A stretch of 46,216 nucleotides of DNA, from NCBI GenBank assembly GCA_052031325.1, contig JBPEXS010000256.1:1-46216 (forward strand), given 5' to 3'. Source of the stretch: Thalassolituus sp. GTDB taxonomy: Bacteria > Pseudomonadota > Gammaproteobacteria > Pseudomonadales > Oceanobacteraceae. Positions 34,978 through 41,735 of this stretch are shown piece by piece. Each line of letters starts with the position of its first letter. The first letter of the stretch is position 1. The notes beneath the pieces were generated by a model. It was not told the origin of the DNA, searched no databases, and was given only the letters and a program-made list of their open reading frames with translations. The position numbers were made by a program, and so were the translations under genes.

Positions 34978-35937
34978 ATGCAGGCAAGTGACCTCGTACA
35001 GCAGTTGCACCGGCTTCTGAAACAACAACCCGAAGGGTTAAACCAGATCAGTCTGATGACCGGGCTGAGTACTTCCCCGGACCGGTTGCAGCAGGCGCTG
35101 GCCCAGCTTAAAGACGAGTACGGAGCTCCTGTCGAATTCGACAGTGAGCAGCGGCTCTGGCGTTACCGGCCTGATGGAACAGACTTTGAATTACCGGGCC
35201 TGTCACTGACGGCTGGTGAGCTGCGAAGCCTGATCACCGTGATCACGCTGCTGGATGATCTGAATGACGGCATTTCTGCCGATGTACTGGGAGATTCCGC
35301 CCGTCAGATTGAGGCAATGATGCGTTCGCACGGGCTCAATCCGGCGGACATGAAACGCCGGGTACGGATTCTCAGTGCCAGTCAGTCGAAAGTGAATAAC
35401 CGCATCTACCGTCAGGTCAGTGATGCGTTGTTCAGCCGTCAGCGGATTGATATCCGATATGTCGCCCGGGATCAGAGCATCAGCGAGCGCACGGTCTCAC
35501 CACAGACTTTGGTTTATTACCGCGATCACTGGTACCTGGATGCCTGGTGCCATCGCCGCCAGCAGATGCGTACTTTTATGCTCAGCCGCATCAGTAGCGC
35601 AGTCGTCTTGTCCGAGGCGGCTGAAGAGTTTGCCGATGAGCTGCTCGAGCATCATTTTCACAACAGTTATGGCATTTTCTCCGGCGAAGAGACGGAAAAA
35701 GCTGAAATCATCTTTCTGCCCGGTGCGGCCCACCTGGTTGCCCAGTTACGCTGGCACCCGGACGCTGAAGGACACTGGGATGGCGATCAGTACCATCTGA
35801 CGTTGCCGTTCAACGACAGCCGGGAGTTACTGCGTGATCTTTTGTCATATGCGCCGGATGTGGTGATAAAAGCGCCGGAATCTCTGCGTGCCGCTTACCG
35901 CAAGCGACTTCAGGATGGCCTGACCCGGAATCTCTGA
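34978..35937 (+). CDS. HTH-WYL-WCX transcriptional regulator (PafB/C, DriD-like)
   Basis: N-terminal HTH-like region; SERTVSPQTL..Y...WYLDAWC..R...RTF..SRI; WCX-like tail P..LR. Confidence 0.9.
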   Translation: MQASDLVQQLHRLLKQQPEGLNQISLMTGLSTSPDRLQQALAQLKDEYGAPVEFDSEQRLWRYRPDGTDFELPGLSLTAGELRSLITVITLLDDLNDGISADVLGDSARQIEAMMRSHGLNPADMKRRVRILSASQSKVNNRIYRQVSDALFSRQRIDIRYVARDQSISERTVSPQTLVYYRDHWYLDAWCHRRQQMRTFMLSRISSAVVLSEAAEEFADELLEHHFHNSYGIFSGEETEKAEIIFLPGAAHLVAQLRWHPDAEGHWDGDQYHLTLPFNDSRELLRDLLSYAPDVVIKAPESLRAAYRKRLQDGLTRNL

Positions 35938-37195: not shown

Positions 37196-37339
37196 AATGT
37201 CCTCTGTATAACGGATGTATAAGTCAGCGCTCAGGCTACCGGATGGCGGCCAGAAATCAAGGTCCGGGTGTGAGAACCCGTCCGGACTGCAGCAATTTTA
37301 TTCCAGAGCTTTGATTGAAGAACGTTTATTGAAGAACTT

Positions 37340-37855
37340 TTATTGAAGAATCAGAGGGCTCACCGGGATGCAGCAGCAGGGCAGGATTTCATCGTCGTCG
37401 ATCCAGGCCATAGGCTCGGTGGTGTAATGCACATCGCCTTCTTTCAGCTTCATACGGCAACTGCCGCAGTAGCCCTCACGGCACTGGTACTCGACATGAA
37501 TATCCTGGGATTCCAGAGATTCGAGCAGACTGCTGGCGTGCTGAAAACGGGCTTCGCGGCCATCCCCGAGGCGTACAGCAAAGACAGGCTTGGCCATGCC
37601 ATCGAATTCAATCTGGGGGGTAGGTTCCGGGCTTTCTGCCAGATAGCCAAACAGATCTCCCTGATCAACGGGTTCAGTCTCTGGCTGAGGTGTTGGATGA
37701 GCAGGTGTACTGGGGGATGGGTCACCCAGATCCATTTCGAGCTGGGTGCTGCCGCCACCAACCAGTTCCATCTCAGCCTGAGCGGCTGAATAGAAGGTTC
37801 TGGAAGGGTACCAGCGGCGGCGTCGGATCAAAGGCATCCGGGCGGACGGCGTCAT
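37340..37855 (-). CDS. yfaE: RNR maintenance 2Fe-2S ferredoxin YfaE with long N-terminal extension
   Basis: YQCREGYCGSCR and ILPCCCIP; directly downstream of nrdB with TGATG overlap; ferredoxin core starts at about aa 87 (37597). Confidence 0.88.
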   Translation of the reverse strand: MTPSARMPLIRRRRWYPSRTFYSAAQAEMELVGGGSTQLEMDLGDPSPSTPAHPTPQPETEPVDQGDLFGYLAESPEPTPQIEFDGMAKPVFAVRLGDGREARFQHASSLLESLESQDIHVEYQCREGYCGSCRMKLKEGDVHYTTEPMAWIDDDEILPCCCIPVSPLILQ

Positions 37856-38985
37856 CAGAGGTCGAAGTCACCGAAGTCAGCGGTGTCCACTTCACTGTCG
37901 ATAGCACCCACCAGGTAAGAGCTGATTTCAGCTTCCTGCGGGGCCACCTGCACGTTATCACTGTTGAGCCAGGCGTTGATCCATGGCAGTGGGTTATTAC
38001 GTGACTCGAAAATTGGGTCAAAGCCAAGGGCACCAATACGTTGGTTGGTAATGTATTCAACGTACTGGCAGAGAATGTCTTTGTTCAGGCCGATCATAGA
38101 GCCGTCTTTGAACAGATATTCGGCCCAGCCTTTTTCCTGTTCAGCGGCTTCGCGGAAGATGGCGATCACATCGTCGCGGCACTCGGCAGCGATTTCGGCA
38201 AACTCGGCATCGTCTTTTCCGGCGGCAATGATCTGCAGCATATGCTGGGTACCGGTCAGGTGCAGGGCCTCATCGCGGGCAATCAGCTTAATGATCTTGG
38301 CGTTGCCTTCCATCTTGGCGCGCTCAGCAAAGGCGAACGAGCAGGCAAAACTGACGTAAAAACGAATGGCTTCGAGTACGTTGACCGAGACCAGTGTCAG
38401 ATACAGGCGGCGCTTGAGCTCACGCAGGGAGACTTCAATGGTTTCACCATTCACAGTGTGCGTACCTTCACCCAGCTGGATGTAGTAGTTACTCAGATTG
38501 ATGAAGTCATCGTAGTAACGGGTCACGGTTTCGGCACGGCGGACGATGTATTCGTTTTTGGTGATGTCGTCAAACACCACAGCCGGGTTCGGAACGATGT
38601 TGCGCACGATGTGGGTGTAAGAACGGCTGTGAATGGTTTCACTGAACGACCAGGTCTCAATCCAGGTTTCCAGCTCTGGAAGGGACACCACCGGCAGCAG
38701 GGCAACGTTGGGTGAGCGACCCTGAACAGAATCCAGCAGCGTCTGGTATTTGAGATTAGAAACGAAGATGTGCTTTTCGTGCTCTGGCAGGTCCATAAAG
38801 TCTTTACGGTCGCTGGCCAGGTCGACTTCTTCCGGGCGCCAGAAGAAGGACAGCTGCTTCTCAATCAGATTCTCAAAAATCTTATGTTTCTGCTGGTCGT
38901 AACGGGCAACATTCACCAGCTCGCCAAAGAACATGGGCTGGCTGAAAGTGTCAAATTCGTTGCGGTTAAAGGTGGTGTAAGCCAT
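37855..38985 (-). CDS. nrdB: Class Ia ribonucleotide reductase beta subunit
   Basis: [16 protein letters not shown] (radical Tyr), [23 protein letters not shown]. Confidence 0.98.
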
Positions 38986-39043: not shown

Positions 39044-41323
39044 TCAGATCTTGCAGGCGCCGCCGGCACAGTCATCATCTTCTTTCTGGATGTCTTTCTG
39101 TGGGTCTTCCATGCCATCACGGGTATTGTGATAGTACAGGGTTTTTACGCCGTTGCGGTAAGCCGTCAGCAGGTCTTTCAAAAGCTGCTGCATCGGAACC
39201 TTATTCCCCGGGAAGCGGGAAGGGTCGTAGTTGGTGTTGGCTGAAATGGCCTGATCCACAAACTTCTGCATGATACCAACAAGTTGCAGGTAACCGGTAT
39301 TGTCCGGGATGCGCCAGAGCAGCTCGTATTGCGACTTCAGCTTCTCAAATTCAGGTACAACCTGCTTGAGGATACCGTCTTTACTCTGTTTAACGCTGAT
39401 GTAACCCCGTGGCGGCTCAATACCGTTGGTGGCGTTACTGATCTGCGATGAGGTCTCAGATGGCATCAGAGCCGTCAGGGTCGAGTTACGCAGACCGTCG
39501 GCCAGGATGTCTTTACGCAGGGCTTCCCAGTCGTAATGCAGGGGTTCATCACAGAACTTATCAACGTCTTTCTTGTAGCTGTCGATCGGCAGAATACCCT
39601 GGGCGTAGGTGGTGTCTTCGAAGGCTTCACAGGCGCCCTGTTCTTTCGCCAGCTTGTTAGAGGCTTTCAGCAGCCAGTACTGAATCGCTTCAAAGGCTTT
39701 GTGCGTAAGACCGTTGGCACTGCCGTCCGAGTACTTCACATTGTTCTTGGCCAGATAATAGGCAAAGTTGATCACACCGACACCCAACGTACGGCGTGAC
39801 AGTGAAGCTTTCTCAGCGGCGACTACCGGGTAGTCCTGATAGCTCAGCAGGCTGTCGAGCGCGCGTACGATCAGGTCAGCAAGTTCTTCGAGTTCATCCA
39901 GATTTTCCAGTGCGCCGAGGTTGAAGGCGGCGAGGGTACAGAGCGCGATTTCGCCATCCGGATCATTGATTTCTTTCAATGGCTTGGTCGGCAGAGCGAT
40001 CTCAAGGCACAGATTGGACTGACGGACCGGTGCTTTTTTCGGATTGAACGGGCTGTGGGTATTACAGTGGTCGACGTTCTGGATGTAGATACGGCCGGTG
40101 CTGGCACGTTCCTGCATCATCATCGCGAACAGGTCGACGGCCTTGATGACCTTCTTACGGATACTGTCATCGGCTTCGTACTTAACGTACAGCTGCTCAA
40201 AGCGTTCCTGATCTTCAAAGAAGGCGTCGTACAGGCCCGGCACATCGCTTGGCGAGAACAGGGTAATGTTGCCATTTTTGATCATGCGCTCGTACATCAG
40301 CTTGTTCAGCTGCACACCATAGTCGAGGTGACGTACGCGGTTTTCTTCCACGCCGCGGTTGTTCTTCAGTACCAGCAGGCTTTCCACTTCGTAGTGCCAG
40401 ATCGGGTAGAACAGAGTCGCTGCACCACCACGCACACCGCCCTGAGAACAGGACTTAACGGCGGTCTGGAAGTGCTTATAGAAAGGAATACAGCCGGTGT
40501 GGAAGGCTTCACCTCCACGAATCGGGCTGCCCAGTGCACGGATTCGTCCGCCATTGATGCCGATACCGGCACGCTGGGACACGTATTTGATGATGGCACC
40601 CGCAGTGGCATTAATGGAATCCAGACTATCGCCGGCTTCGATCAGTACGCAGGAGCTGAACTGGCGGGTCGGGGTGCGGACGCCGGCCATGATCGGTGTT
40701 GGCAGCGACAGCTTAAAGGTCGATACGGCGTCGTAGAAGCGTCTGATGTAATCAAGACGGCGTTCTTTGTCGTACGCAGAGAACAGACAGGCGGCAATCA
40801 GTACATAGAGAAACTGGGCGCTCTCGAATACCTGGCCGGTCACCCGGTTCTGCACCAGATACTTGCCTTCCAGTTGTTTTACGGCGGCATAGCTGAAATT
40901 GAGGTCACGGCTGTGATCGATGAAGTCGTTCATCGCCGCAAACTCTTCTTCGGTGTAGTCGCTCAGCAAGTGCTCGTCGTAGCGTTCGTTTTTGACCATC
41001 CACTTGACGTGATCAATCAGCGCCGGTGGCTCAAAACGGCCGTAGGCTTTTTTGCGCAGGTGGAAAATGTTCAGGCGGGCGGCCATGTACTGGTAGTCCG
41101 GCACCTCTTCCGAGATGAGGTCAGCCGCGGCCTTGATCAGGGTTTCGTGAATTTCAGACGTCTGGATGCCATCGAAGAACTGCAGGTGAGCTCGCAGCTC
41201 GACCTCAGAAACAGACACCTTATCCAGCCCGTCTGCAGCCCATTCCACCACCTTGTGGATTTTATCGAGATTCAGTGGTTCCTGAGTGCCGTCACGCTTA
41301 GTGACTTTGAGCGTTGAGTTCAT
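39044..41323 (-). CDS. nrdA: Class Ia ribonucleotide reductase alpha subunit
   Basis: ATP cone VTKRDG, SSCVL, SNLCLE, KTLYY, C-terminal CAGGAC; likely start ATG 41323. Confidence 0.98.
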   Translation of the reverse strand: MNSTLKVTKRDGTQEPLNLDKIHKVVEWAADGLDKVSVSEVELRAHLQFFDGIQTSEIHETLIKAAADLISEEVPDYQYMAARLNIFHLRKKAYGRFEPPALIDHVKWMVKNERYDEHLLSDYTEEEFAAMNDFIDHSRDLNFSYAAVKQLEGKYLVQNRVTGQVFESAQFLYVLIAACLFSAYDKERRLDYIRRFYDAVSTFKLSLPTPIMAGVRTPTRQFSSCVLIEAGDSLDSINATAGAIIKYVSQRAGIGINGGRIRALGSPIRGGEAFHTGCIPFYKHFQTAVKSCSQGGVRGGAATLFYPIWHYEVESLLVLKNNRGVEENRVRHLDYGVQLNKLMYERMIKNGNITLFSPSDVPGLYDAFFEDQERFEQLYVKYEADDSIRKKVIKAVDLFAMMMQERASTGRIYIQNVDHCNTHSPFNPKKAPVRQSNLCLEIALPTKPLKEINDPDGEIALCTLAAFNLGALENLDELEELADLIVRALDSLLSYQDYPVVAAEKASLSRRTLGVGVINFAYYLAKNNVKYSDGSANGLTHKAFEAIQYWLLKASNKLAKEQGACEAFEDTTYAQGILPIDSYKKDVDKFCDEPLHYDWEALRKDILADGLRNSTLTALMPSETSSQISNATNGIEPPRGYISVKQSKDGILKQVVPEFEKLKSQYELLWRIPDNTGYLQLVGIMQKFVDQAISANTNYDPSRFPGNKVPMQQLLKDLLTAYRNGVKTLYYHNTRDGMEDPQKDIQKEDDDCAGGACKI

Positions 41324-41449
41324 GTCTGTAATGCCTTTGTTCAAGGGGATACTGCTCCTTTAGTCCCTGAGTCTGTTCAGCCGCCAGAGGCGCTCCGGAG
41401 TGGAGGGAAGGCGGCCTAAGTAACTGACCTGCAGTAGATTTTATTCGCT

Positions 41450-41497
41450 CCACAAGATAATGCGCTGACCAGTCGAATTCAACCCCAGATATAGTGC
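41450..41497. promoter_or_regulatory. Tandem NrdR boxes
   Basis: CCACAAGATAATGCGC (41450-41465) and ACCCCAGATATAGTGC (41482-41497), 32 bp apart, upstream of nrdA. Confidence 0.8.
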
Positions 41498-41513
41498 TGT
41501 TATACCCCCGGGA

Positions 41514-41533
41514 TGTGGATAAGTTGTGCGTAT
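41514..41533. promoter_or_regulatory. DnaA boxes in the nrdA promoter
   Basis: Perfect TGTGGATAA (41514-41522) and adjacent degenerate TGTGCGTAT (41525-41533). Confidence 0.75.
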
Positions 41534-41735
41534 CCCGTTGATGGGCAGGGGGCATCCGGCGCAGAGCTACGGCCTGTCTCAGCTGCTGATAAAATACGAT
41601 GATCCGCGCCTGAAAACGACGTTCAATGTTTACTTTGTGCAACAGTGTAAATCTCGGTCTACAGTTAAGAAGAGGCTCCCTGTTCTGTAACAGGTTCAGC
41701 ATCCGACATCCAAACGGCAGCAATGGTACTTCTTC

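Follow-up and report, generated by a model that had tools for sequence, protein, structure and literature searches.

In a 46,216-nt stretch of Thalassolituus sp. DNA (contig JBPEXS010000256.1), hereafter the window, the gene directly behind nrdB encodes a variant of the known ferredoxin YfaE whose N-terminal arm probably confers a beta-clamp-binding function, one that is likely to have arisen more than once among YfaE proteins. Whatever purpose such binding might serve, the pattern of motifs makes it quite probable that the arm binds the clamp. That docking through the arm localizes regeneration of the NrdB radical at replication forks or repair sites is a narrower proposal, which we favor slightly over all others taken together.

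A YfaE with an N-terminal arm encoded directly after nrdB

The yfaE gene (37340..37855, minus strand) specifies 171 amino acids, consisting of the 86-residue arm (aa 1-86; 37598..37855, minus strand) and a 2Fe-2S ferredoxin domain (aa 87-171; 37343..37597, minus strand) that carries C125, C130, C133 and C160-162. It is the third gene in the order nrdA-nrdB-yfaE, all on the minus strand, with nrdA (class Ia alpha subunit; NF006578) at 39044..41344 and nrdB (class Ia beta subunit; NF006576; C-terminus DFGDFDL) at 37855..38985. An earlier note on this DNA had described an 86-codon extension starting at an ATG that overlaps the nrdB stop codon, and the open reading frame has precisely this structure, the yfaE ATG and the nrdB stop sharing one base (TGATG). 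A terminator-like hairpin, recognized by consensus match only, lies 60 nt 3′ of yfaE (37260..37279, minus strand).

Residues 105-167 match the NCBIfam model for YfaE, NF007985, with 104.2 bits (cut-off 75), and C125, C130, C133 and C160 are invariant in an alignment of 63 orthologs (58 of 73 loci, 15 duplicates or near-duplicates having been dropped, and five database proteins). The product is thus assigned to YfaE by its family score, its conserved cysteines and its position directly after class Ia nrdA-nrdB. YfaE maintains the diferric-tyrosyl radical of NrdB, and its role in the maintenance of class Ia ribonucleotide reductase (RNR) was reportedly described by Wu et al. in 2007. Judging from family and gene position, the armed YfaE would reduce met-NrdB for rebuilding of the tyrosyl radical. 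Escherichia coli YfaE resembles it in having a 2Fe-2S domain above the NF007985 cut-off and in being the third gene of nrdA-nrdB-yfaE, but the 86-residue motif-bearing arm sets the window's protein apart: the family model, which spans 81 positions, has no counterpart of it, and the enterobacterial and Alteromonas loci are armless.

The nearest named relative of the armed locus, from a Thalassolituus genome, shows 85% identity. Metatranscriptome contigs from three runs of one study give shallow, partial coverage of nrdB and nrdA and none of yfaE. Elsewhere in the window, the DNA immediately downstream of the nrd operon encodes a regulator with a WYL-WCX domain (34978-35937, plus strand), whose neighbors are an SDR oxidoreductase and a peroxiredoxin, and a 141-codon open reading frame that overlaps the nrdA upstream region (41298-41723, minus strand; best family match E 0.07) is probably spurious.

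The arm is coding and conserved throughout the family

The arm is a coding segment that occurs family-wide and is selected at its motifs. A yfaE gene is held by 78 of 86 family genomes (60 of the 61 near-complete ones), and in all 78 the frame, extension included, is free of stops and open over 151-209 codons. All 49 of the best named loci carry the arm (Thalassolituus, Oceanobacter, Oleispira, Bermanella, Bacterioplanes, Bacterioplanoides, Venatoribacter, Parathalassolituus, Gynuella-labelled and unassigned genomes), and it is absent from each of the next 31 (L080-L110; Alteromonas, Paraglaciecola, enterobacteria and others). When 23 related pairs are pooled, the motifs have a dN/dS of 0.068, the linkers one of 0.216 and the domain one of 0.046, values obtained from non-independent pairs with partly saturated synonymous sites and with some motif 1 and motif 2 windows missed and scored as linker. 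The earlier note had proposed asking whether the motifs are conserved while the linkers diverge, and these values indicate that they are.

Were translation to start at Met87, the arm would be an untranslated or functionless spacer. A methionine is held at this position in 46 of the 63 orthologs, but Leu, Ile or Phe replaces it in 14 (Phe in five), the earliest in-frame start codon and the nrdB stop overlap in 34 of the 73 armed loci, a count that includes duplicates, dN/dS lies far below 1, and the region lacks both a promoter-like site and an Rfam match. The 21 nt preceding Met87 contain no AGGAG-like element, in agreement with the earlier remark that this codon has no clear Shine-Dalgarno sequence. 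Because the frame is open in 78 of 78 genomes, dN/dS is low and Met87 is unconserved, we judge the arm to be coding; the spacer reading, to which we attach almost no probability, is largely ruled out already. Met7 was rejected as a start codon, the residue being unconserved, and the absence of Rfam matches and promoter-like sites from the region likewise led us to discard a non-coding element inside the arm.

Three other families of the order each have one genome with an armed YfaE (L024, L178, L191), so the armed form either predates the family or has spread; class-wide sampling, in which 29 of 400 genomes matched, yielded no additional armed YfaE. A phage origin was rejected, as four viral loci match the domain alone and six phage-collection records match only the domain of a tailed query. 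Two Oxalobacter-labelled loci (L100, L108) have an enterobacteria-like nrdB-yfaE with an acidic N-terminal extension of about 25 amino acids that is devoid of Q motifs, and a search of the ESM Atlas returned only ferredoxin clusters without names.

Motifs of the arm and the two forms of the clamp motif

Behind a basic/aromatic tip, RRRRWY (aa 11-16; 37808..37825), the arm of the window carries, all on the minus strand, motif 1, QAEMEL (aa 26-31; 37763..37780), motif 2, QLEMDL (aa 38-43; 37727..37744), motif 3, QGDLF (aa 65-69; 37649..37663), and motif 4, QIEFDGM (aa 81-87; 37595..37615), the last adjoining the domain. The tip and the four elements, the last then given as QIEFD, are located where the earlier note had placed them. 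Among the orthologs the four motifs keep a fixed order along the arm, and the spacing between motifs 3 and 4 is just 16 or 18. The R-rich tip ending in W is a genus-level feature: all 15 sequences from the genus have it, and the remaining 48 lack it.

Clamp motifs have the form Q-phi-x-[LM]-[FL] or Q-phi-x-[LM]-x-[FL], both of which, as described in passages of PMC11139829, occupy one clamp pocket; QxxLF serves as the working consensus in corresponding passages of PMC12926913. Motifs 1 to 3 of the window, with Leu or Met at position 4 and Phe or Leu at position 5 or 6, all fit: motif 1 has the hexamer form, motif 2 the strict hexamer form, resembling LQLELDF, the winning phage-display peptide described in part of PMC11139829, and motif 3 is here a pentamer. 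Motif 4 is non-canonical. Its glutamine, Q81, is present in 63 of 63 orthologs and a glycine at position 6 in 59, position 5 is polar or small and the hydrophobic residue comes at position 7, so that the conserved unit, Q-[ILF]-[ED]-[FL]-x-G-[ML], fits neither published form. The count of four clamp-like motifs given in the earlier note is thus overstated.

Motif 3 is the element maintained family-wide. Q65 is present in 63 of 63 orthologs, Asp, Glu or Ser at position 3 in 59, and Leu or Phe at position 4 in 62 (Leu in 55, Phe in 7). The hydrophobic residue is placed as in the pentamer alone in 14 sequences, as in the hexamer alone in 24, as in both in 24 and as in neither in one; motif 3 therefore alternates between the two clamp-motif forms, with 62 of 63 fitting. 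By genus, it is the pentamer QGDLF in that of the window, a hexamer such as QDSLIL in Oleispira and QxELxL in most others. Motifs 1 and 2 are more restricted, and the multivalent arm that the earlier note envisaged is regular only in the window's genus, where both read Q-x-E-[ML]-x-L; in other genera, motif 1 is mostly x-x-[DE]-F-x-L and motif 2 mostly x-x-x-F-[ED]-L-E.

Such an accumulation of motifs is uncommon by chance, with the reservation that the patterns, the loose form included, were chosen after the motifs had been seen: none of 200,000 shuffles of the window's arm contained three loose clamp-type motifs and 36 contained two strict ones, and three loose motifs inside 86 aa occur in 2 of the 2221 open reading frames of the genome, armed yfaE being one. 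Across the 63 arms, which are related and hence give non-independent counts, the Q-x-x-[LM] motif occurs 86 times where 11.6 occurrences would be expected, and strict motifs occur 26 times where the expectation is 2.9.

An objection to clamp binding is raised by position 2, where the optimum is aliphatic and best Leu. The window has Ala there in motif 1, Leu in motif 2 and Gly in motif 3, and none of the 63 orthologs has Leu at this position of motif 3. The position is described as tolerant in passages of PMC11139829, although Ala there costs about 40-fold in affinity and Gly also lowers it. MutS, treated as a known clamp ligand in parts of PMC8744996, offers an in-clade control: near its C-terminus, all five clade genomes inspected, that of the window included, have Q[GNS]D[LM]F (QGDMF, QNDLF three times and QSDMF), which, from its position, is presumably the MutS clamp motif. 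Motif 3 matches this pattern, in which position 2 is Gly, Asn or Ser. Elsewhere in the clade, QGDLL occurs in the DnaE2 of one genome and QL[TP]L.V in Hda. At the internal clamp-motif position of DnaE (about aa 930-950; L125-L128 of this clade), the sequence is M-x-D-[LM]-F, with Gln absent. A clamp motif on NrdB itself was rejected, as 199 NrdB sequences gave only five scattered matches, at an internal position.

The predicted setting of the motifs is also that of a clamp ligand. In two AlphaFold2 models, the plant-type ferredoxin fold begins at residue 92 with no secondary structure before it, and pLDDT is 46-62 across aa 1-80 of the arm; motif 4 may be partly ordered, because aa 81-90 reach a pLDDT of up to 76. 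Folding of the arm onto the ferredoxin domain was discarded as a possibility, there being no packing in either model. Among armed orthologs the arm is 21.7% Asp plus Glu and 10.6% Pro, so the motifs are predicted to sit in an exposed, disordered, acidic segment. Known clamp ligands (Hda, MutS, DnaE, Pol II/IV/V and PolA2) similarly bear one of the two motif forms, Q-x-x-[LM]-[FL] or Q-x-x-[LM]-x-[FL], within an acidic terminal segment that is disordered; unlike them, armed YfaE, a candidate ligand, has up to three motif copies in one arm. The host clamp itself appears to have the canonical peptide pocket, judging from the DnaN of the closest relative (G012), in which 17 of the 18 pocket residues listed for E. 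coli are retained and position 344 differs. The dnaN of the window's genome reaches a contig end at residue 269 and is 94% identical to the relative's over that part.

C-terminal tails with clamp-type motifs in other YfaE lineages

In a profile search covering 1.84 billion representatives, about 14 clusters carried the arm, and armless YfaE ending in QGDLF, QGELF, QNDLF, QAELF, QNDMF or QPELF also appeared. Querying with one of these tailed proteins returned 31 proteins, of which 27 have a C-terminal tail motif and two bear the label Neisseriaceae in their source. A metagenome scan gave 80 loci, 67 of them distinct, with nrdB upstream in 55 of the 67. Among 55 distinct tails of at least 14 residues, 27 carry a Q-type motif (12 with two or more copies), 22 carry E/D-x-D-L-F only and 6 neither, although these are related sequences retrieved by means of a tail-bearing query, so the figures are not frequencies; the background for a Q-type motif is 60 of 2221 C-termini. 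Both motif forms occur in the tails, in one to three copies, with QADMF and QVSLF among the pentamers and QLALDL among the hexamers, which are terminal; in several tails a basic run separates the motifs. One large tailed group shows repeated E/D-x-D-L-F without Gln.

In a tree of NrdB built from 125 of 165 distinct sequences, for which only every third armed sequence was kept, the armed loci group together (support 0.81), the arm-bearing L057 and L074 among them and L066 outside, and tailed loci fall in another group (0.92), intermixed with tail-less lineages. Because arm and tails occupy opposite protein ends in separate lineages, the tails are likely to have arisen independently of the arm. 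One further protein, P0016, the single member of its cluster, combines a YfaE domain of the genus type with a rebuilt arm bearing QLDLF, QQELLL and QFELSL and a basic R..W segment.

The clamp reading of the earlier note gains strength from the pentamer/hexamer switch, the clade's MutS motif and the similar C-terminal tail motifs of other YfaE lineages, and overall it appears partly supported.

Proposed clamp docking and its alternatives

The beta clamp is a dimer and offers two peptide pockets. We envisage that motif 3 acts as the clamp anchor throughout the family and that, in the window's genus, motifs 1 and 2 have turned into copies bearing Q, which would give avidity across the two pockets or across neighboring clamps, while the basic tip would favor DNA-loaded clamps. 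Single motifs are expected to be weak, because motif 3 lacks Leu at position 2, and YfaE would therefore exchange with polymerases instead of blocking them. The clamp-held ferredoxin would re-reduce inactive NrdB near forks or repair sites, meeting it transiently, so that forks would be the place of RNR reactivation and RNR would not necessarily be anchored there. Tethering of RNR itself, which the earlier note had also entertained, would need a lasting contact between YfaE and NrdB.

Several observations sit uneasily with docking. Four different motifs in an unchanging order are more reminiscent of an extended interface with a single partner than of interchangeable copies; in other genera, motifs 1 and 2 are mostly without Q and carry at position 4 a Phe, a disfavored residue there; and 22 of the 55 tails carry E/D-x-D-L-F without Q. 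Most YfaE proteins have neither arm nor tail (the outgroup loci being armless in 31 of 31 cases), which indicates that tethering is not generally needed.

The fixed order of the motifs and the 16- or 18-residue spacing of motifs 3 and 4 would suit an arm that binds RNR, either with motifs 1 and 2 mimicking the NrdB C-terminal tail in the NrdA groove or with the arm wrapping NrdB, an alternative that we regard as unlikely. It is also suggested by the translational coupling of nrdB and yfaE and by the D-F-x-L of motifs 1 and 2 in most genera, which equals the last four residues of the clade's NrdB (..G-D-F-D-L). Arm and tail do not co-vary, however: Bermanella NrdB ends in D-I-E-L while the arm keeps F, and in the window's genus the arm has shifted to Q-x-E-M-x-L while the NrdB tail keeps F. 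The invariant Q and the pentamer/hexamer alternation are, moreover, left unexplained by it. In four Bermanella genomes (L062, L065, L066, L067), the NrdB body is 80-81% identical to that of Colwellia and 65-66% to that of the window, compared with about 80% between the window's NrdB and those of sister genomes, whereas the C-terminal tail and the armed yfaE are native and all four motifs are kept. Such an apparent in-place replacement of the NrdB body is in keeping with clamp docking and counts, weakly because shared surfaces remain, against a clade-specific site for the arm on NrdB. A division of labor, in which motif 3 would bind the clamp and motifs 1, 2 or 4 would bind RNR, is compatible with clamp docking and, if true, would make YfaE a genuine clamp-RNR bridge.

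No less unlikely than RNR binding, in our estimation, is a regulatory read-out in which loaded clamps switch on YfaE, sequester it or time its turnover, so that RNR activity would follow the number of active forks. Hda senses replication through DNA-loaded clamps, and all the sequence evidence for clamp binding applies equally to such a read-out; basic segments beside the motifs, in the window's genus, in P0016 and in several tails, would suit combined recognition of DNA and clamp. Because dNTPs diffuse fast, local supply may add little, which also speaks for a read-out. Against it, no switch or degron feature was identified, and in the predicted models the arm shows no packing against the domain from which it might be freed.

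Finally, a clamp motif places a protein and leaves its client unnamed, and the clamp-bound ferredoxin might serve another client at the fork, such as Fe-S DNA enzymes or local redox repair. This is quite improbable, given that yfaE stays directly behind nrdB in armed and tailed lineages and that the domain passes the YfaE equivalog cut-off.

Relation to RNR localization and implications

Whether RNR resides at forks is an old and disputed question, in E. coli too: passages of PMC2826317 describe a 'replication hyperstructure' with NrdB foci near replisomes and cite a contrary study that saw no foci at forks. Clamp docking by armed YfaE would resemble the hyperstructure in concentrating RNR at forks, but E. 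coli-type YfaE is armless, and the arm would thus be a lineage-specific solution; those passages name no physical adaptor for the E. coli NrdB foci. The main text of PMC10638427 and that of bioRxiv 2025.08.20.671105, in the portions available, name neither YfaE nor NrdAB among clamp partners, and titles and abstract openings of the open-licence literature, a scope that leaves subscription papers outside, revealed no armed or clamp-binding YfaE adaptor. The clamp ligands that feature in passages of PMC11139829 act on DNA or the initiator, whereas armed YfaE is a redox protein of nucleotide metabolism.

A bolder and more tentative proposal, to which we give a little less than an even chance, is that YfaE has evolved at least twice into a clamp-riding adaptor coupling the sliding clamp to ribonucleotide reductase, through the N-terminal arm in relatives of Thalassolituus, Oleispira and Bermanella and through C-terminal tails in Neisseriaceae-labelled and other lineages. 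The candidate link between RNR and the replisome comes down to a few residues in a small protein, and point mutants can therefore test it directly. If the proposal is true, it would be the first time that dNTP synthesis is tied to the bacterial replisome by a defined physical link, with a metabolic redox protein as the clamp ligand, and the partners of the clamp would extend from DNA enzymes to a protein of metallocofactor repair. The likely independent origin of motifs at both ends of YfaE suggests that a link to the clamp has been selected repeatedly.
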